Positions 11,661-60,113 of a stretch of DNA of 64,000 nt are shown in pieces (position 1 is the first letter of the stretch; the number at the start of each line of letters is the position of its first letter). The position numbers and the translations under genes were made by a program. The DNA is from an uncultured Gammaproteobacteria bacterium (GTDB lineage Bacteria; Patescibacteriota; Patescibacteriia; SG8-24; DYFX01). Below the pieces are notes generated by a model. That model did not search any database. It saw only the letters and a list, made by a program, of their open reading frames with translations, and was not told the DNA's origin. Location: the NCBI GenBank assembly GCA_964404275.1, contig CAYOJH010000004.1:5172-69171 (forward strand), written 5' to 3'.

Positions 11661-12758
11661 ATGCCGTCCATCTTGTTTTTCTCGTTCCCCTACGCCTCTT
11701 CCCGCGGCGGCGGCGAGCGCTATACCGAGCAAACCGTCGAAGGACTTTTGCGCGCCGGAGGCGACGTGACGCTCGTCTCCTCTTCCGAGGCGCTGCTCTC
11801 CGCCTTCGTGTCCAAAAAATGGAAGGTTGTGCCGCTCTGGCTCGGCGTCGAGCCCGTCACGGCTTGGTCGGCGGCGATCTTTCCGCTCTTCGCCATCGTC
11901 GCCTGGCCGATTCTTTTTTTCCTGCTGGCCTGGTTCCGCTGGGCGAAAGGCGTGCGCACGATCGTCTGCCTTTCGATGATCGATAAGCTGCTCGCGACGC
12001 CGATCGCGCGACTCTTCGGCCTGCGCGTCGTCTGGATGGAGCATCTCGTGGCCGGGCGTTCGCTGCGTTTGAATCCGTTTCGTGGATTGTATGTTGCGCT
12101 GTCGAAACGCGTGCGCATCGTGACGGTCTCGGAAGCCGCCGCCGCTTCCTACGCCCAGCTCGGCGTGCCGCGCGATCGTATCGCCGTCATTTCTCCCGGC
12201 GTAGCATCGCTCGCCGCGCAGCCGCCGCGCCGCGCAGGACACGTCATCGGCGCGATCTCGCGTTTCAGCCGCGAAAAGAATGTCGCCTTGCTCCTCAAAG
12301 CCTTCGCGGAAGTTTTGAAATCCATCCCCGACGCGACGCTTGAAATCTACGGCGACGGTCCGGAACGCGCAGCCCTAAAAAAGCTGGCGCAGGATCTCGG
12401 AATCACCGAACAAGCGCATTTCCATGGATATGTAGAACGCATCGGCGATCGTTGCGCCTTCGATGTGCTGGCCGTGCCTTCCTCGCGCGAATCGTTCGGC
12501 ATGGCGGCACTCGAAACGATGCGCTGCGGAATCCCCGTCGTCGCCACGCGCGCGGGTGGGTTGCCGGAAGTCATCGCCGACGGCGAAACGGGAATCGTGG
12601 TTCCGCCTGATGACGCGGCGGCGATGTCGGAAGCGCTCGTCGCGCTCATGAAAGATCCCGCGCGCGCGGCGCACCTGGGCGCGGCCGGGCGCGAACGCGC
12701 GGCGCGCATGTTCAGCGAAGAAAAAATGCAACAGGCATGGACAACGCTCTTGTCGTAG
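11661..12758 (+). CDS. glycosyltransferase family 4 (GT-B, RfaG-like)
   Basis: C-terminal GT4 motifs (SxxESFGMAALETMRCGIPVVATRAGGLPEVI..GETG). Confidence 0.8.
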   Translation: MPSILFFSFPYASSRGGGERYTEQTVEGLLRAGGDVTLVSSSEALLSAFVSKKWKVVPLWLGVEPVTAWSAAIFPLFAIVAWPILFFLLAWFRWAKGVRTIVCLSMIDKLLATPIARLFGLRVVWMEHLVAGRSLRLNPFRGLYVALSKRVRIVTVSEAAAASYAQLGVPRDRIAVISPGVASLAAQPPRRAGHVIGAISRFSREKNVALLLKAFAEVLKSIPDATLEIYGDGPERAALKKLAQDLGITEQAHFHGYVERIGDRCAFDVLAVPSSRESFGMAALETMRCGIPVVATRAGGLPEVIADGETGIVVPPDDAAAMSEALVALMKDPARAAHLGAAGRERAARMFSEEKMQQAWTTLLS

Positions 12759-14014
12759 CGGTCATCGCCAGCGCGGCGCTCCTGCCATTCGAACGCCTCG
12801 GCGCCTTCACGCTCGCCGGCGTCAACATCCGGCCGAGCCAGATCGCGCTCGCGATCGCTTGGCTGCTTTGGATCAGGCTCTGGCTCCTCGGCCGGACGAA
12901 ACTCGCTTGGCGCCGTCCCTCCCTCCTCGCGCTGGCCGGTTTTTTCGCGGTCGCGGGCCTTTCGCTGTTGAACGCGGAAAATCTTCCGCGCTCCCTCGTC
13001 GTGCTCGGCTTCACGCTCTTCACCGCCTCGCTCGCGCTCTTGCTTCCCAACGTCATCAAAGACGAGCGCGCCTTCAAGCGCATCCGCGTCGCCATTGTGC
13101 TCTCCGCCGCGCTCGTCTCCTTGCTCGGCCTCTGGCAATTCGTGGCCGACATGCTCGGCGCGCCGCTTTGGATGACCGGATTGCGCGAGACCTATTCGCG
13201 CGCGATCCTCGGCTTCACGCGCGTGCAAGGCGCCTCGGCCGAGCCGCTCTATTTCGCCGACTACCTGCTGCTGCCCATCTCCTTGGTCGTCACCTGGTTG
13301 TTGCGCCATGACGCAAAAACTGACGGCCGTCGGTTTTTGCGCCCCGTGCAAATCCTGCTCGTCGCCATGTTGATTGACGTTTTCCTCACCGCTTCGCGCG
13401 GCGGCTGGCTCGGCCTCGGCGTGACACTCGTCGTGCTGTTGTGGTGCGAACGGAAGCGCTTGAAGGATTGGCGGCCGATCGCGCGGGCGGGCGGAATCGC
13501 CGTCGCGGCGCTCTCGCTTGGCGTGCTTCTGCTCGGAAGTTTCTTTTCTCCGACGCGCGAAACGGTGACGGATATTTTCTTCACCCACGTCACCAACATC
13601 ACGGGCGGCGCGGCGTATGACGACCGCGCGCAAACGATCTCCGCCGCGCTCGACGCCTGGCGCGCGCATCCTTGGATCGGCGTCGGCTTCGGCGGCTACG
13701 GCCCGTTCGTCTCGACCTTCGCCTTCGCCAAACCGGATGCAGGCTGGCCGATCGTGAATAATGAAACGTTGGAACTGCTCGCCGAAACGGGAGTATTTGG
13801 ACTTGTTGCCTTTCTGATCTTCCTCGTCACGCTTATGCATGAAACCAGCGGGCGGCGCAGGCGATATCCGCAGGAGGCAACACGCATCGCTTGCCTCGCG
13901 GCGCTGGCAGGCATGTTGGCGCAGTACCAGACCTTCTCAACCTTGTATATCATGCATGTGTGGTTTACGATCGGCCTGCTTTTAGCCGCGTCTGAGGCTG
14001 GAAAACCGGCTTGA
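12737..14014 (+). CDS. O-antigen ligase / Wzy_C-family membrane protein; carries an in-frame copy of the 36-bp palindromic repeat
   Basis: multi-TM, periplasmic loop with RGGWLGLG; repeat encodes HDAKTDGRRFLRP. Confidence 0.6.
   Translation: MDNALVVAVIASAALLPFERLGAFTLAGVNIRPSQIALAIAWLLWIRLWLLGRTKLAWRRPSLLALAGFFAVAGLSLLNAENLPRSLVVLGFTLFTASLALLLPNVIKDERAFKRIRVAIVLSAALVSLLGLWQFVADMLGAPLWMTGLRETYSRAILGFTRVQGASAEPLYFADYLLLPISLVVTWLLRHDAKTDGRRFLRPVQILLVAMLIDVFLTASRGGWLGLGVTLVVLLWCERKRLKDWRPIARAGGIAVAALSLGVLLLGSFFSPTRETVTDIFFTHVTNITGGAAYDDRAQTISAALDAWRAHPWIGVGFGGYGPFVSTFAFAKPDAGWPIVNNETLELLAETGVFGLVAFLIFLVTLMHETSGRRRRYPQEATRIACLAALAGMLAQYQTFSTLYIMHVWFTIGLLLAASEAGKPA
13309..13342. repeat. copy 2 of the palindromic repeat (slightly degenerate) located inside a CDS, in frame
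   Basis: TGACGCAAAAACTGACGGCCGTCGGTTTTTGCGC. Confidence 0.75.
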
Positions 14015-14059
14015 CAAAAGATGTAACATTTGTTACATTAAATGTAACACTTGTTACAT
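14011..14059 (+). promoter_or_regulatory. promoter (TTGACA-N17-TACATT) overlapped by two tandem 18-bp palindromic operators ATGTAACAnnTGTTACAT spaced 21 bp apart
   Basis: perfect 8-bp inverted arms repeated twice, AT-rich, directly upstream of the HTH gene. Confidence 0.6.
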
Positions 14060-14308
14060 ATGTCCAAAAAACTCCTCTCACCCACCGAAGTTGCAAGCAT
14101 GCTGGGGATCAGCCGGGTGCACGTCTGGCGGAAGATCCAATCAGGCGAAATTCAAGCCGAGAAAGTCGGCAGTCGTTATGTCGTGCCTGCCGATCAGTTC
14201 AAAACGCTTCAACCTTCCGATCCGGTAAGCGAGAATGAAATCGCAAAGGCCGTGAAGAGGGTCGTAAAGGAATACGGCACCACGCTGAAGAAGCTCGGGG
14301 CCGAGTGA
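14060..14308 (+). CDS. helix-turn-helix DNA-binding protein (excisionase/MerR-like HTH_17), putative antitoxin/autoregulator
   Basis: LSPTEVASMLGISRVHVWRKIQSGEI HTH; 2 nt upstream of a Doc-type toxin gene; low GC. Confidence 0.6.
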   Translation: MSKKLLSPTEVASMLGISRVHVWRKIQSGEIQAEKVGSRYVVPADQFKTLQPSDPVSENEIAKAVKRVVKEYGTTLKKLGAE

Positions 14309-14309
14309 T

Positions 14310-14732
14310 ATGACCCGCAGGCTCAATATTGATCATGTCCGTTTCTTGGCGCACGAGCTCGCGCAACGGCTCATGGAGTGGGGTGAACCCATTCCGCCGT
14401 TTGAAACACGTTATCCGGAAAAGCTGGAATCCTGCCTAACGACGCCGTTCGCGACATATGACAAGAAGGAACTCTACCCGACGCTTGAAGAAAAATCCGC
14501 GATCCTGTTCTATTTGATGATCAAAAATCACCCTTTCAAAAACGGGAATAAAAGGGTGGCAGTGACAACTCTTCTTGTTTTTCTCTCCGCCAACGGAAAA
14601 TGGATGAAAGTCGATGAGCAGCAGCTCTATTCTTTCGCCAAGTGGGTGGCGGAGAGCTTGCCGAGTTTGAAAGACGCGACAGTCTTCGCCGTTATTGACT
14701 TCTTAAAAAAACAGATCGTAAACGCTGCATGA
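14310..14732 (+). CDS. Doc/Fic-family toxin (death-on-curing-like)
   Basis: Doc-type motif HPFKNGNKRVAVT; ~140 aa; low GC relative to flanks. Confidence 0.7.
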   Translation: MTRRLNIDHVRFLAHELAQRLMEWGEPIPPFETRYPEKLESCLTTPFATYDKKELYPTLEEKSAILFYLMIKNHPFKNGNKRVAVTTLLVFLSANGKWMKVDEQQLYSFAKWVAESLPSLKDATVFAVIDFLKKQIVNAA

Positions 14733-15940
14733 CCCTCCTCACCGTCGCCTTCATCGCTTTCGCGCTCCTCGCCTGGAAAAATCTCCGCGCGGCTTTTTTG
14801 CTGTTCGTGGCCGCGCTGCCCACCTACGTGATTCGTTTCCAGGTCGGCCCCTTGCCGACGACGGCGCTCGAAATCCTGTTCGCGATCCTCTTCGCCGCCT
14901 GGATGCTGAAGCGCGAGAAACGCCTGATCGACATCAAAGGCTGGGGCTGGCTGCTGCTCGCCTGGATCGCCGTCGCGACGGTTTCGCTCTTCGTCTCCCC
15001 CGATTTTCGCGCGGCGGCCGGCGTCTGGAAAGCCTATTTCATCGAGCCTATCCTCTTCTTCCTGATCGCCAACGACCTGCTACGCACGCAAGCGGACCGC
15101 GAGGCGGCCGTGCATTCGCTGGCCTGGTCGGCGATCGCGATTTCGATTCCAGCCATCCTCCAGCATTGGACGAACTGGGGCGTGCCGCCTCCCTGGAACC
15201 TGCCGGGACAGGAGCGTTCGACCTCGATCTACGGCTATCCGAACGCGACGGGTTTGTTCCTGGCGCCGATCGTTCCGCTGTTTTTCAAAAAGAAACCGCT
15301 GCACCTTATCGCGCTCGCCTGCTCGCTGGCCGCGATCGTGTTGGTGCAATCCGAAGGCGCGATCGTCGGCCTGATCGCCGCGACCGGCGTCTTCCTGCTG
15401 TGCTTCAAAGAGACGCGCAAGCGCGCGCTCGCCGTCGGCGCGATCCTGGCCGTCGTGATTTTTGCCGTTCCCGCTACCCGCGCGGTCGCGATCGAAAAAC
15501 TCACGCTGAACGATTGGTCCGGCCGCGTGCGCAAAGAGATGTGGGGCGAAACCATGAACATGCTGAAAGATCACGCCGTGTTCGGCGCGGGCCTCTCCGG
15601 CTACCCGATCGTCTTCAACCCCTATCACAAAGCGCGGCACATCGAGATCTTCCAATATCCGCATGACATTCTCTTGAACTTCTGGGTCGAGACCGGCTTA
15701 GCCGGCGTGCTCGTGTTCTTCCTTCTGGTCGGACAGGATCTTCAAACCATCCGCAGTCTCATGAAGCGCGATCCTCGCCTGCGCGCCTGGTGCGCGATGC
15801 TCTTCGCTTCGATGACGGCGCTGCTCGTCCACGGCCTGGTCGACGTCCCCTATTTCAAAAACGATCTCTCGATGCTGTTCTGGCTCTTGCTCGCCTTCGC
15901 CGCCTCGAGCTTGGCCGAAACGAAAACGCCGCCCCGTTAG
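14729..15940 (+). CDS. O-antigen ligase / polymerase-family (Wzy_C-like) membrane protein
   Basis: multi-TM with large periplasmic loop; second paralog in the locus. Confidence 0.6.
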   Translation: MTLLTVAFIAFALLAWKNLRAAFLLFVAALPTYVIRFQVGPLPTTALEILFAILFAAWMLKREKRLIDIKGWGWLLLAWIAVATVSLFVSPDFRAAAGVWKAYFIEPILFFLIANDLLRTQADREAAVHSLAWSAIAISIPAILQHWTNWGVPPPWNLPGQERSTSIYGYPNATGLFLAPIVPLFFKKKPLHLIALACSLAAIVLVQSEGAIVGLIAATGVFLLCFKETRKRALAVGAILAVVIFAVPATRAVAIEKLTLNDWSGRVRKEMWGETMNMLKDHAVFGAGLSGYPIVFNPYHKARHIEIFQYPHDILLNFWVETGLAGVLVFFLLVGQDLQTIRSLMKRDPRLRAWCAMLFASMTALLVHGLVDVPYFKNDLSMLFWLLLAFAASSLAETKTPPR

Positions 15941-16116
15941 GAGGCGGCGTTTTTTTGCAGGCAGGACGTGCACCACATGTTGTCCATCGGCTGGGCGTGC
16001 CCGCAGTCTTCGCATTTGCAGGTTCCTTCCGCGCACGTCATCGGCATTTTGCAGTCCTTGCACTTCGCGGCGTCGGCGGGAAAATCCATCCCGCAGGCCG
16101 CGCACTTCATGGTCAT
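15937..16116 (-). CDS. small Cys-rich (multiple CxxC) metal-binding/zinc-ribbon-like protein
   Basis: MTMKCAACGMDF...CKDCKMPMTCAEGTCKCEDCGH...CTSC; 12 Cys in 59 aa. Confidence 0.4.
   Translation of the reverse strand: MTMKCAACGMDFPADAAKCKDCKMPMTCAEGTCKCEDCGHAQPMDNMWCTSCLQKNAAS
15941..15962. terminator. bidirectional terminator
   Basis: cgccgcc-ccgttagga-ggcggcg + T7. Confidence 0.55.
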
Positions 16117-16224
16117 AAGTCGTTGATACATTCTTGCCCACAGCATAGCCAAAGCTTGACGCAAGGGCAAATGCGGGATCTTTACGATTCCGTCGCCGCG
16201 TGCTAGATTGCGGCAGTCAACCGT

Positions 16225-16315
16225 GGAGAGATGGCTGAGCGGTTGAAGGCGACGGTCTCGAAAACCGTTAGACCTCAAAAGGGTCTCGTGAGTTCGAATC
16301 TCACTCTCTCCGCCA
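16225..16315 (+). tRNA. tRNA-Ser (anticodon CGA), type II
   Basis: acceptor GGAGAGA/TCTCTCC, anticodon loop CTCGAAA, long variable arm, GCCA end. Confidence 0.85.
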
Positions 16316-16391
16316 AAAGGCGCCGGGCAGATCCCGGCGTTTTTTGCATGAAAAAACCCGCGTGGCGCATGCCCCGAGCGGAGTCGAGGGG

Positions 16392-17129
16392 TCAGCGCGC
16401 GCGGGTTTTGAGGAAAATCGCCTTTTCCCGGTCGACGGCGATCGGAACGGCGCAGAGCAAGTAATCCTGCAGCGCCTGGCCGTAGAGATCGATCGTCGCC
16501 TTGTCGTCTCCGATGAAGCCGGCCGCCAGATACTCCAGCGTGCGGAAGAACGTGTCGACGACCAAGCCGTCGAAGATCTTCTCGCCTTCGAGGCTCGTTC
16601 CGCGCGCGAACCGGACGTTCAACAGCTTGGGCAGCGTCTCGAGCAGCGGTTTGCGCAGCGGATCGAGTTGCTCGCGCAGAGCCTTGTGCGTTTTGTTCGT
16701 GAGGTGCCGATCTGGCGCGGAGACCATCTGTCCGGCGAAGGTCGGAAGCACGCCCGAATCATGCGGGCAGCGCTCCTGCAGCATCCGCATGATGTCCGGC
16801 AGGAACGCATAGCTGCGATAGCTGTCGTACGTCTCTTGCAACATCCAGTCCGGACATTCGAACGGCTTGGCCGGATCGATGAAGAGCACGCGCGGCCGGA
16901 AGATGCCGGTCAATCGATAGGCCAGATGCGCCAGCTCGATATCGTTCTTGCGACCGTAGTCGGCGCGCACGCGCAGCGATCCGTCCTCGTCGGCATTATC
17001 GATCAGCGCGATGAACTCGCGGAAATAATGCGGCACGCTGTAACGCGCACGCACGCCCGGATCCTTGGCCTGCCGGCCGACCCACTCGCCGAACGCGCGC
17101 AGACCTTCGTTGAGACCGTTGACATACAT
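16392..17129 (-). CDS. hypothetical protein
   Basis: RBS AAAGGAG 8 nt before ATG (MYVNGL...); track's + strand ORF 16344..18074 is its antisense shadow. Confidence 0.45.
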   Translation of the reverse strand: MYVNGLNEGLRAFGEWVGRQAKDPGVRARYSVPHYFREFIALIDNADEDGSLRVRADYGRKNDIELAHLAYRLTGIFRPRVLFIDPAKPFECPDWMLQETYDSYRSYAFLPDIMRMLQERCPHDSGVLPTFAGQMVSAPDRHLTNKTHKALREQLDPLRKPLLETLPKLLNVRFARGTSLEGEKIFDGLVVDTFFRTLEYLAAGFIGDDKATIDLYGQALQDYLLCAVPIAVDREKAIFLKTRAR

Positions 17130-53869: not shown

Positions 53870-54847
53870 TTATTTCTTGGTCCCTTTCCGCTTGTCGTGA
53901 AAGGCTTTGTAGACTTCCTGAAGATGCGCGTCGGTGATGTGCGTGTAGATTTGCGTGGTCGTGACGGAGGCGTGGCCGAGCAGCGATTGGACGGAGCGAA
54001 GATCGGCGCCGTTCATGAGAAGATCGGTGGCGAAAGAGTGACGGAGCGTGTGCGGCGAGATGCGCTTCACGATGCCGGCGATCTGCGCGTAGTGCTCGAC
54101 CAGGCGTTGGACGCTGCGCGGCGTCAGACCCGACATTTCATCCCGTCCTTTCGAAGCGCGGTCGTGGCTCACGAACAGCATCGGACTCATGTCCTTGCGC
54201 GCGTCGAGATATTTTTTCACCCAAGCTTTCGCGTCTTCGGAAAAAAACACGACGCGATATTTCGAGCCTTTGCCTTTGACCGAAAATTCGTTGCGATTGA
54301 AATTGATGTCTTCGAGTTTCAAATCGCAGAGTTCCGAAACGCGCAGACCCGTCGACCAGAGGAGTTCGAGGATCGCGCGATCGCGCAGACGCACCATGTC
54401 CGGTCCTTGCGCTTTCATCGGCGCGTCGAGCAGCTTCTGGACGTCCGCCGGCTCGAGGAATTCGACGTGGCGTTCCGGCTGCTTGGCGAGTTCGATCTTT
54501 TCCGGCGCGAGCGTCTCAATGTCGCGCTTCGACAAATATTTCAAGAAAGCGCGCAGGGCGATCAAATGGTAATTCTGCGTGTTTTTCTGAAGCGCTTCGC
54601 CATGATGATCTTCCAGGCGATTCAGCCAGAGGCGGAACTGGCGGACGGCATCGAGCGTGATGCCATTTGCCTTGGTGATTTTCCGCTCCAAGGCCCAGTC
54701 CGCGAAGCGTCCGAGGTAGAAGCCGTAGTTCTCCCGCGTCCGTTTGGAGCGGTTTTTTTCGATCTCCAAGTAGTCCCCGAAATCACGAATCAGCTCGTGA
54801 ATCTGGCTTTTTTTGGCTGTCGAATCGACTTTTTCCTTTAAGGCCAT
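53870..54847 (-). CDS. tyrosine recombinase XerC/XerD family
   Basis: N-terminal core-binding domain; C-terminal R..HxxR..Y catalytic motifs (HTLRHSFAT, LLGHASVTTTQIYTH). Confidence 0.8.
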   Translation of the reverse strand: MALKEKVDSTAKKSQIHELIRDFGDYLEIEKNRSKRTRENYGFYLGRFADWALERKITKANGITLDAVRQFRLWLNRLEDHHGEALQKNTQNYHLIALRAFLKYLSKRDIETLAPEKIELAKQPERHVEFLEPADVQKLLDAPMKAQGPDMVRLRDRAILELLWSTGLRVSELCDLKLEDINFNRNEFSVKGKGSKYRVVFFSEDAKAWVKKYLDARKDMSPMLFVSHDRASKGRDEMSGLTPRSVQRLVEHYAQIAGIVKRISPHTLRHSFATDLLMNGADLRSVQSLLGHASVTTTQIYTHITDAHLQEVYKAFHDKRKGTKK

Positions 54848-58853: not shown

Positions 58854-59912
58854 TTACAGCTGATGGTGTTTCGCTCGTTCAACCATGAACTTCACCGCGT
58901 CATTGGCATTGACGTATTCGATGAGTAGGTCCGGGTGGCGTTTCTGAAATACCCGGAACACCTCGTCAGCAAATGCCTGACCGACAGAGGGTACGCGCTC
59001 GAAGTCTAGGACGATCTGCTTGAATTTATCGAGTCCCGTAAGGAGGCGTCGGGCTTGCGAACGAGAAATTTGTGCTGTGCCATAACGGTATAATTTCACG
59101 TGCACCACTGTTCTATCGAAGGCCGGCTCTTCAACATCGATGGAAAAAGGCCGGAATACGTCACGATCAAGGTGCCTATCGGAGTTGAGGGCGATCTCAA
59201 AGATAACCTTGGTGCCGGTATGCGCGGAGATCTCTTCTAGGAATGTATCGGGAATCCGATTATCCACGGTGAGCATGAGCGTTCCGCTTTCGAGCATGAA
59301 GAGATCGCCGGATTTCGAGGTGAAGAAGATGCCCTCACCACTATGTCGGTCGGGAACCGTCGTCGTTTTCCCTTTCAACACGTCAAGAGCAGCTTCATAT
59401 TGGCTCTCCAAGCGTCTTTTCCACATCACGTTTTCAAAAGCACCGATCCCCCTGTCTTCAACCTCGAACCTCAATTTGCCGTCTCCAATTTCTACCGTGG
59501 TCCTGATAGTGTCTGATTGCGAATGATCTATTGCATTATTTACCATTTCCGAAAATGCATAATCAAAAATACTGCGTACGTTTTCATGCAGTACGCCGAG
59601 TTTCGGTAAATCTCTGACCACCTCATCGTAAACGTCTGCTTCGCTCAAGTCCGTATTACGAAACGTTTTTTCCCATTTCGAAGCGGTGTGTAAAATTGCC
59701 GACGCATTTTTCTCTGTCGCGGCAACATAGTAGGCTCCGCGCGTTATACCAATCTTCAGAATCCTCTTTTGTCCCAATAGCTGGCCAATAATATGCCTGG
59801 CCAGCTTGGCATGGCCTGGAAAAAAAACGATAACTTCGCGTGCTTTGAACTCGCGGCGCTCATCGAGTAATTCTTCGATTTTCTGCCTAATTTTCGTTGA
59901 GATATCAGACAT
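58854..59912 (-). CDS. wHTH + GHKL (HATPase_c-like) + C-terminal STAS-like (DUF4325-type) protein; low-GC
   Basis: N box MVNNAIDHS, G1 VEDRGIGA, G2 GEGIFFT; C-term FERVPSVGQAFADEVFRVF; GC visibly lower than flanks. Confidence 0.5.
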   Translation of the reverse strand: MSDISTKIRQKIEELLDERREFKAREVIVFFPGHAKLARHIIGQLLGQKRILKIGITRGAYYVAATEKNASAILHTASKWEKTFRNTDLSEADVYDEVVRDLPKLGVLHENVRSIFDYAFSEMVNNAIDHSQSDTIRTTVEIGDGKLRFEVEDRGIGAFENVMWKRRLESQYEAALDVLKGKTTTVPDRHSGEGIFFTSKSGDLFMLESGTLMLTVDNRIPDTFLEEISAHTGTKVIFEIALNSDRHLDRDVFRPFSIDVEEPAFDRTVVHVKLYRYGTAQISRSQARRLLTGLDKFKQIVLDFERVPSVGQAFADEVFRVFQKRHPDLLIEYVNANDAVKFMVERAKHHQL

Positions 59913-60113
59913 GGACGTGGTATCTACTAATAATCTACCAATATATACTAATCTTGTCAAGACCTATTTACTAATATATATCAATTATCGGGTTAAGAAT
60001 ATTGACAGGTGGGGCGCCACTTGATATCTTTTGCCTGTATTTAACTCCGGCCGCGACGCTTGGTTTCAGCCTCGAGCGGGCTCCTACTCGGCACGACGGC
60101 ATATAAAAGACGT

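Follow-up and report, generated by a model that had tools for sequence, protein, structure and literature searches.

A putative type II toxin-antitoxin cassette with a Doc-family toxin and an HTH_17 antitoxin at the joint of two O-antigen-ligase-like genes in Patescibacteria

The window analyzed here is a 64,000-nucleotide stretch of contig CAYOJH010000004.1 (assembly GCA_964404275.1, positions 5,172 to 69,171 of the forward strand), and all coordinates below are window positions. It carries a polysaccharide cluster with the gene order flippase, GT4 glycosyltransferase, lig1, and lig2, the last two of which are O-antigen-ligase-like. A short segment of low guanine-plus-cytosine (GC) content lies at the joint of lig1 and lig2. 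It contains a promoter, two palindromes, a gene for a helix-turn-helix (HTH) protein, and a gene for a Doc-type protein. This segment is probably a type II toxin-antitoxin (TA) cassette, and its features are as follows.

14011..14728, plus strand: putative inserted cassette, from the -35 box through the last sense codon of Doc; 718 bp
14011..14039, plus strand: sigma-70-like promoter, TTGACA-N17-TACATT, with an extended -10 (TGn); 10/12 hexamer matches
14021..14038, no strand: operator palindrome 1, ATGTAACA tt TGTTACAT; lies over the spacer and the -10 hexamer
14042..14059, no strand: operator palindrome 2, ATGTAACA ct TGTTACAT; covers the predicted transcription start and abuts the ATG
14060..14308, plus strand: candidate antitoxin and putative autorepressor, HTH_17, 82 aa; PF12728, TIGR01764
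14310..14732, plus strand: candidate Doc-type toxin, 140 aa; PF02661, TIGR01550; motif H74-R82
12737..14014, plus strand: lig1, Wzy_C / O-antigen-ligase-like, host context and not part of the cassette; PF04932, 2e-19
14729..15940, plus strand: lig2, Wzy_C / O-antigen-ligase-like, host context; PF04932, 2.6e-21

The TTGACA and TACATT hexamers occupy 14011-14016 and 14034-14039, respectively, with TG two bases 5' of the latter. Palindrome 1 is ATGTAACAttTGTTACAT (14021-14038) and palindrome 2 is ATGTAACAcTTGTTACAT (14042-14059). Both are perfect 8-2-8 inverted repeats (ATGTAACAnnTGTTACAT) with a start-to-start distance of 21 bp. When up to three mismatches were allowed, the pattern was found in the 64 kb at just these two sites (0.01 expected), and no further copy of the palindrome, the Doc gene, or the HTH gene was found there. 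The TGA stop of lig1 (14012-14014) sits within the -35 hexamer; hence, the whole 45-bp intergenic space is taken up by the promoter and the operators. With transcription predicted to start near 14046-14047, the leader would be approximately 13 nt long. A single base (14309) separates the antitoxin stop from the Doc ATG, and the Doc TGA (14730-14732) overlaps the lig2 ATG (14729-14731) in the tetranucleotide ATGA. This overlap makes it probable that lig2 is co-transcribed and translationally coupled with Doc. On the plus strand, no terminator-like site was found in 14011-15930; one is present at 15934-15947, after lig2. As no such site lies between Doc and lig2, lig2 is probably the third gene of the TA operon, with read-through in addition. 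The GC content of 14011-14732 is 0.488, compared with 0.613 for the window and 0.62-0.63 immediately beside the cassette, and falls in the lowest 1.2% of equal-sized intervals. GC at third codon positions is 0.65 in the HTH gene, 0.60 in Doc, and 0.79-0.83 in the flanking genes.

Much of this arrangement had been described in an earlier sequence-only reading of the same DNA. The promoter was read directly at the place proposed, the two 18-bp palindromes over it are perfect and 21 bp apart, and the 140-aa protein with the motif HPFKNGNKR is encoded at 14310-14732. The overlap of its stop with the start of the downstream ligase-like gene, the ligase-like nature of both flanking genes, and the approximately 720 bp of low GC were likewise borne out. 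Two lengths were corrected. The HTH_17 open reading frame (ORF) is present, but encodes 82 aa instead of 83, and the Doc gene lies immediately downstream, but after a spacer of 1 nt instead of 2. The position of the lig1 stop inside the -35 hexamer had not been recorded.

The 140-aa protein was matched by TIGR01550 (DOC_P1; 1e-14, 54.7 bits, curated cut-off 38.65) and by PF02661 (Fic/DOC; 1.5e-12, 48.6 bits, curated cut-off 24). Its catalytic motif, H74-P-F-K-N-G-N-K-R82, is of the Doc type HxFx(D/N)(A/G)NKR and not of the Fic type HxFx(D/E)GNGRxxR. In an alignment of 30 homologs, H74, F76, N78, G79, N80, and R82 were invariant, and K81 was nearly so (at least 90%). The AlphaFold2 (AF2) model, with a predicted local distance difference test score (pLDDT) of 91.4, has the all-alpha Fic/Doc fold. 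In a Foldseek search with this model, the top three matches were chains of P1 Doc (3dd7, 3k33; probability 1.0, template modeling score 0.61-0.76), and ranks 4-13 were Fic proteins. The nearest solved protein by sequence in phmmer was Doc of Enterococcus faecalis (9VZC, 2.8e-8). The phmmer alignment to P1 Doc places H74 on H66 and K81/R82 on K73/R74. By every criterion of sequence and predicted fold tested, the 140-aa protein is a member of the Doc family. A protein cluster look-up gave no public name or accession for the window proteins; some sources label homologs of the toxin, but not the window toxin, as death-on-curing. The Doc domain also matches PHROG 577 ('Doc-like toxin') and the C-terminal ~110 residues of the PADLOC candidate PDC-S23 (~320 aa; 3.1e-21). 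The latter match suggests that single-chain Doc-domain fusions occur among candidate anti-phage systems.

The 82-aa protein matched PF12728 (HTH_17) at 1.7e-9, above the curated cut-off, and TIGR01764 (excisionase) at 1.7e-9 with 37.9 bits (cut-off 28.8). Its AF2 model was built from an 11-sequence alignment and is of moderate confidence (pLDDT 74). In it, residues ~5-47 are predicted to form a strand-helix-helix-wing domain, which a linker of low model confidence (48-57) connects to a long amphipathic C-terminal helix (58-81) with the family motif ..AVKRVVKEYGTTLKKLGAE. The Foldseek neighbors of the N-terminal domain were BldC, Xis of mycobacteriophage Pukovnik (4j2n), and RacA; the domain also matches PHROG 66/2907 (excisionases). 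No Phd/YefM match (PF02604) was found in the antitoxin, and an hhalign comparison of P1 Phd with the antitoxin alignment gave a probability of 0.2%. Judged by its profile matches and model, the antitoxin is an excisionase/MerR-type winged helix and is not Phd-like, in agreement with the earlier proposal of an HTH protein in place of Phd. The inhibitory motif (S/T)xxxE(G/N) is not present in the 82-aa sequence. Matches of the C-terminus to designed helical repeat proteins were taken as compositional and were set aside.

The pair belongs to a larger family. A total of 1613 Doc homologs were detected, most of which carry no taxon name; those with a name belong to Patescibacteria (Parcubacteria, Moranbacteria, and similar), except for a few under the bare label 'bacterium' or 'uncultured bacterium'. 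The gene upstream of Doc was extracted from 84 loci, 82 of which were scorable. At 80 of the 82, the upstream ORF (~85 aa in most) has the same architecture as the window antitoxin, and all of the upstream ORFs share the conserved C-terminal end ..KAVKKTVKEYGETLKLLGKE. The spacing between antitoxin and Doc ranges from an 8-nt overlap to a 15-nt gap. A word-indexed search with the antitoxin found only 11 homologs; thus, the family picture rests on the ORFs at loci found through Doc. The genomic contexts of the pair vary (uvrA and glycosyltransferases in locus L008, ROK/PBP in L169, and others), which argues for a portable two-gene module and not for a part of the polysaccharide pathway. Doc directly abuts the downstream gene at about a quarter of the family loci (14/62). 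Phage and plasmid collections from cultivated organisms contained only distant Doc relatives, all below 60% identity (30-42% for the best 20 listed), and no vector was identified in them. This is apparently a large Doc family with an HTH_17 antitoxin that is characteristic of Patescibacteria. No description of an HTH_17-Doc pair was found in the literature searched, the coverage of which was incomplete.

A scan with the lig2 protein, using one genome per species, returned 74 loci. The flippase-GT4-lig1-lig2 cluster is kept in about 15 close relatives, and the lig1 orthologs in L002-L022 are 62-73% identical. The lig1/lig2 joint occurs in three states.

Joint with the cassette lineage of the window: window (= L001), L002, L003 (= L004-7, L019), and L165 (= L166, L167)
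Empty joint: L011-L016, L018, L020, and L022 (nine relatives)
Joint with a different Doc cassette: L021

At the empty joints, the lig1 stop overlaps the lig2 start (..CGCGCATGACC..), with ..GC joined straight to ATGA, and in all nine relatives lig1 ends in a shared ..SKPxRA tail. In an alignment of the four carriers, conservation begins exactly between C and TTGAC, and the lig1 tail 5' of that point is unrelated. This fixes the bounds of the insert with a precision of a few bases: it begins with TTGAC (14011) and ends with the final Doc codon (14728). From CTTGAC, which is itself invariant, to the ATG, the block is nearly invariant across the four carrier lineages; palindrome 2 is kept in all four, and palindrome 1 is kept in L002 and L003 and degenerate in L165. 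In carriers, lig1 takes its new stop from the -35 box or from bases immediately past it, and the ATGA overlap with lig2 is remade by the Doc stop. The same 4-nt overlap of Doc and lig2 is found in L002, L003, L165, and L021. The cassette is a presence/absence polymorphism among close relatives, nine or ten of which are as close as the carriers and have the joint empty.

The joint of L021 (4397-5004 of JBBTWH010000015.1) holds a different module. A 54-aa ORF without an HTH, ending in ..EAKEFAKRYGGVIKTLANE like the antitoxin motif, overlaps a divergent 133-aa Doc-like gene whose motif, HYRIDGNKR, has R in place of F. The Doc-like protein aligns to the family over its C-terminal half only, at 35% identity, and its gene ends in the ATGA overlap with lig2. 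The sister genomes of L021 (L020 and L022) are empty. The L021 module is a relative of the cassette that is decaying, or else it marks a second and independent capture of the joint. In the more distant relatives (L023-L084, lig2 at most 49% identical), the flippase lies directly 5' of the lig2 ortholog, usually without GT4 or lig1; GT4 and lig1 therefore look like a clade-specific addition.

Host trees were built by neighbor joining (NJ) from lig1 and lig2, from flippase and GT4, or from all four genes, and are thus trees of the cluster and not of the genomes. The window groups with the empty L012, L013, L015, and L016 (98-100% bootstrap), and L165 groups with the empty L014 (100%). L002 and L003 group with the empty L018 in the trees that include flippase and GT4 (82-100%); in the lig1 and lig2 tree, L002 groups with L020-L022 (81%). 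The carriers were never monophyletic on the flank trees (0/200 bootstraps). Furthermore, lig2 of L165 and lig2 of L017 are 94.4% identical in DNA, and the empty-site signature CACGCGCATGACC is seen in the first bases of the L017 gene. The four cassettes nevertheless cluster together, apart from all other family members (100% bootstrap). Between the window and L002, identity is 89% for Doc, 83% for the HTH protein, and 58% for lig2; between the window and L165, the values are 82%, 66%, and 72%, respectively. Cassette similarity does not follow flank similarity, and the cassette and flank trees disagree. As all empty sites, in three clades, have one junction structure, the empty joint is taken as the ancestral state. 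The favored explanation is that a single cassette lineage has spread between related genomes by way of recombination in the conserved flanks.

Composition was compared in the same loci. Cassette GC is 0.49-0.545 and flank GC 0.58-0.68 in the four carriers, a deficit of 9-16 points in every one. The family loci have a median GC of 0.41, and typical family genomes are at about 41% GC. The low GC of the cassette is what incomplete amelioration would leave if the cassette came from a phylum member of lower GC. The proposal in the sequence-only reading that the module was acquired horizontally is supported by its absence from most close relatives, but the acquisition was not a single recent event, as one cassette lineage occupies this joint in at least four lineages among empty ones. 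The module is neither conserved in all relatives nor of native composition; empty joints were found, and its GC is non-native in every carrier.

Operators were surveyed in the 90 nt upstream of the antitoxin genes of the family. A palindrome with at least eight matched arm positions was found in 69% of the upstream regions and in 11% of shuffles. TTGAC[AT] occurs in 42/77 regions (6% of shuffles), and its median distance to the ATG is 39 nt. This distance leaves very short or no leaders, and the spacing at the family loci L085-L164 implies that a large part of the family has mRNAs that are leaderless or nearly so. The commonest half-site is GTTAACA, usually as one full palindrome with extra half-sites beside the -35 box and the start codon. 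The TGTAACA half-site is used by the window clade and several others, and smaller groups have TGCAAC or GTCAAC/GACAAC.

The half-site classes covary with the recognition helix, which in the window antitoxin comprises residues 18-27 (SRVHVWRKIQ). R24 was found in 10/10 members of the GTAACA class and in 1/48 of the TTAACA class (p = 2e-10). A21 showed the opposite distribution, with 41/48 in the TTAACA class and 0/10 in the GTAACA class (p = 4e-7). Q20 was present in 4/4 of the GTCAAC/GACAAC class and in 0/48 of the TTAACA class (p = 4e-6). On an NJ tree built from Doc proteins, GTAACA members fall at four or more separate positions, and R24 accompanies them at every one. L021, whose antitoxin is short and lacks the HTH domain, also lacks palindromes upstream. 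These comparisons are good comparative evidence that the HTH domain would read the palindromes. Half-sites are 10 bp apart inside a palindrome, and the palindromes are 21 bp apart; from this phasing, all four half-sites should lie on one face of the DNA. The operators lie over the -10 hexamer and the predicted transcription start, so their occupancy should repress the operon. The autoregulated type II TA pair of the sequence-only reading is well founded as an adjacent, conserved pair, and its autoregulation is suggested by palindrome conservation and helix covariation. Within the TGTAACA class, some members (e.g. L089 and L106 versus L103 and L139) have reversed half-sites, TGTTACA..GTAACA versus TGTAACA..TGTTACA, and in a 'CTTAACA' sub-class, Q, N, or Y replaces K at helix position 24. 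The recognition rules may exceed the three classes tested.

In our reading, 14011-14728 is a self-contained type II TA cassette of the Doc family that has inserted at the lig1/lig2 joint and is exchanged among relatives; we place its probability at about 0.8. Its mode of action is proposed by analogy with the Phd-Doc pairs of P1 and E. faecalis. The antitoxin would bind the four half-sites, block the -10 hexamer and the transcription start, and thereby repress its own operon. Its C-terminal helix would dock onto Doc and neutralize it. Upon depletion of the labile antitoxin, free Doc would phosphorylate EF-Tu and translation would stop. The gene for EF-Tu, which would carry the target threonine, was searched for in the window and is absent from it. 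As for the history of the locus, an ancestral polysaccharide cluster with lig1 and lig2 joined by an ATGA stop/start overlap would have received the cassette exactly at the joint, with the -35 box giving lig1 its stop and the Doc stop restoring ATGA. From then on, lig2 would be transcribed behind the TA operon and probably translationally coupled to it. The cassette, which may have come originally from a lower-GC member of the Patescibacteria, most likely spreads among related members by homologous recombination through the flanks.

Several observations weigh against this interpretation. The promoter match is the only one in 12500-16500, where 0.9 is expected by chance, and by itself is at chance level and not significant; the promoter call is credible because it is conserved in the four carriers and in the family upstream regions, not because the match is single. 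No Shine-Dalgarno sequence was found before the ATG at 14060. No sequence similarity was detected between the antitoxin C-terminus and Phd or any solved chain, and docking on Doc is accordingly proposed by analogy. BldC/Xis-type domains usually bind head-to-tail direct repeats, and binding of inverted repeats would need a dimerization mode of the antitoxin. The tree inside the cassette clade is weak (52-58% bootstrap). Sliding-window DNA identity of the window lig1 and lig2 with 10 relatives gave no clear recombination tract to another carrier; the first ~225 nt of the window lig2 are marginally nearer to L018, L002, and L020, within noise. The host trees rest on two to four cluster genes and therefore leave room for an ancestral insertion with several losses. 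Finally, a slight excess of AT over the host is seen in cassettes throughout the family (median GC difference -2.7 points; 62/78 loci), so part of the GC dip in the window is intrinsic.

The strongest competing explanation keeps the same TA cassette and makes its history purely vertical, with one ancient insertion, at least three independent precise deletions, and no horizontal spread. A single cassette lineage (100% bootstrap against the family) at a single site would be expected under such a history, as would the lack of a recombination tract in the flanks; the microhomology at the two ends (..GC before TTGAC and GC before ATGA) could mediate precise deletion, and the lasting GC deficit could reflect constraint and not recent arrival. 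However, nine empty sites in three clades have the same lig1 tail (..SKPxRA followed by the stop) and the same ATGA, which separate deletions are unlikely to recreate. Cassette distances do not track flank distances, and the carrier L165 and the apparently empty L017 differ by just 5.6% in lig2 DNA. We therefore regard vertical descent as unlikely, though it deserves more weight than any of the explanations that follow.

A somewhat less probable account, which is compatible with an exchanged TA cassette, is that the module serves primarily in abortive infection or anti-phage defense, with Doc released on infection. The matches of Doc to PDC-S23 (3.1e-21) and PHROG 577 point in this direction, and patchy presence and absence among close relatives is typical of defense genes. 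Surface-glycan clusters are often phage-receptor regions, which we count in favor of a defense role. Nevertheless, PDC-S23 is a candidate system only, its proteins are ~320 aa long, and the match is limited to the Doc domain; no other defense genes were identified beside the cassette.

A more speculative and rather improbable extension treats the cassette as a recombination-spread 'operon-joint' element that has captured the lig1/lig2 joint repeatedly, L021 carrying a divergent Doc cassette there, and links expression of a glycan ligase/polymerase to the TA state. Coupling of Doc to lig2 behind an autoregulated promoter would then replace the coupling of lig1 to lig2, and the operator and recognition-helix classes may constitute a DNA-recognition code that insulates paralogous cassettes from cross-talk. 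If this were true, Patescibacteria would have heritable, exchangeable on/off or stress-linked control of surface glycans, for example for variation in phage or host attachment.

Slightly more doubtful again is domestication of the pair, in which the HTH protein mainly represses lig2 and the Doc-like protein is a co-repressor or signaling enzyme instead of a growth-arresting toxin. The fusion of lig2 to the pair through the ATGA overlap with no terminator-like site between, the retention of this arrangement in the four carriers and L021, and the higher conservation of the TA proteins compared with the flanking membrane proteins are all in keeping with domestication. Yet the same pair and promoter architecture occur in unrelated contexts (uvrA/glycosyltransferases in L008, ROK/PBP in L169, and many more), the catalytic motif of Doc is fully intact, and most close relatives run the cluster without the cassette.

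The idea that the HTH protein is an excisionase and the segment a mobile-element remnant with Doc as cargo was rejected as very improbable: the winged helix fits, with best matches of the N-terminal domain to TIGR01764, PHROG 66/2907, and Pukovnik Xis (4j2n), but the expected association with an integrase and attachment sites was not found. The 718-bp insert contains two genes only, and next to it there are neither integrase or other element genes nor att-like repeats; the nearest tyrosine recombinase is ~40 kb away. The palindromes overlap the antitoxin gene's own promoter, and the protein, which is coupled to Doc in every case, bears an additional conserved helix at its C-terminus.

The exchanged TA cassette can be compared with several known systems. 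It shares with P1 Phd-Doc (3k33, 3dd7) the toxin fold and the motif HxFx(D/N)(A/G)NKR, a small antitoxin gene directly upstream, and a modular antitoxin with an N-terminal DNA-binding part and a C-terminal helical tail, the tail being predicted in the window protein. Two adjacent palindromic promoter sites are also common to both (the P1 dual operator is described in PMC13034048). In contrast, the window antitoxin is an HTH_17 winged helix without similarity to Phd, whereas Phd has the Phd/YefM fold. The window toxin shares only ~21% identity with P1 Doc and includes an additional helical region at the N-terminus, and the window module is chromosomal, inside an operon joint, in Patescibacteria. 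In P1, Doc acts as a co-repressor. It is established for Phd-Doc that the toxin phosphorylates EF-Tu and halts translation (Castro-Roa 2013 and Garcia-Pino 2008, as cited in PMC10440598; PMC13034048).

The E. faecalis Phd-Doc module (9VZC; PMC13034048) is likewise chromosomal, and its toxin is the closest solved one by sequence. In its antitoxin, residues 1-55 form the DNA-binding domain and a C-terminal helix (52-79) inserts into Doc (PMC13034048), which is the layout predicted for the window antitoxin as well. The differences lie in the DNA-binding part, which is an AbrB/MazE-like beta-sheet domain with a single palindrome in E. faecalis and an HTH with two palindromes in the window.

Composite Doc modules have been described before. 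The C-terminal element of Phd is a portable linear neutralizer (PMC10440598), and non-Phd partners of Doc include those in MazE-Doc TasA-TasB (PMC1626090), AbrB-, Xre-, and YhfG-Fic/Doc (PMC2701414), and PanA(Phd-C)-Doc (PMC10440598). The window pair would follow the same plan, in which Doc is joined to a different DNA-binding or accessory domain that bears a short linear neutralizing element, but none of these partners is HTH_17. In a 2009 census, truncated MerR-like antitoxins were paired with PIN toxins, not with Fic/Doc (PMC2701414).

Class I Fic modules (FicT-FicA, VbhT-VbhA) share with the window pair the Fic/Doc superfamily fold and a small partner protein. A class I Fic reading of the window pair was rejected, because the toxin has GNKRVAV and not GNGRxxR, and the antitoxin is without [ST]xxxE[GN]. 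Class I Fic has GNGRxxR and (S/T)xxxE(G/N), whereas the window toxin has GNKR without the trailing xxR and its antitoxin has no inhibitory motif. The activity there is AMPylation; by analogy with Doc, phosphorylation would be expected for the window toxin.

Other features of the window and its relatives were noted. The lowest-GC kilobase of the window (0.46) lies at 58857-59960 on the minus strand, in a 368-aa ORF with an ATPase domain like that of histidine kinases (HATPase_c/HATPase_c_2) and a C-terminal DUF4325 STAS-like domain, and may be acquired. At 53873-54847 on the minus strand is a tyrosine recombinase (Phage_integrase, 5e-45) with an N-terminal SAM-like domain, in a kilobase whose GC is reduced to 0.55. 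Its gene lies 40 kb from the cassette and may encode a XerC/D-like protein or be part of a mobile element. A 113-aa ORF at 15937-16278 on the minus strand converges on the end of lig2. Its Cys-rich C-terminus (CxxC...CxxC...CxCxxC) is zinc-ribbon-like, and no Pfam match was found for the ORF; a small minus-strand gene without annotation occupies the corresponding position in L002. L002 also encodes, ~5 kb downstream of its cassette (11829-12423), a larger Fic-domain protein with a faint MarR-like match, and Fic/Doc-fold proteins may exist in more than one form in these genomes. Many MAG records (L011-L014, L019, L020, and others) are titled 'uncultured Gammaproteobacteria bacterium', but their gene content and closest relatives are plainly patescibacterial, and the title looks like a placeholder or mislabel.

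As another type II TA module, the cassette leaves the view of how such systems work unchanged, and the HTH_17-Doc pairing adds one edge to the combinatorial network of toxins and antitoxins. The comparative evidence on operator recognition is unusually clean, with at least three half-site classes that have their own helix signatures and recur across the tree. A selfish cassette of this kind can insert without breaking the translational coupling of its neighbors. Filled and empty alleles at a base-precise joint, together with discordant trees, provide a natural example of gene flow among uncultured ultra-small bacteria. The cassette belongs to an ordinary class of element, yet offers a clean example of gain and loss between related genomes.

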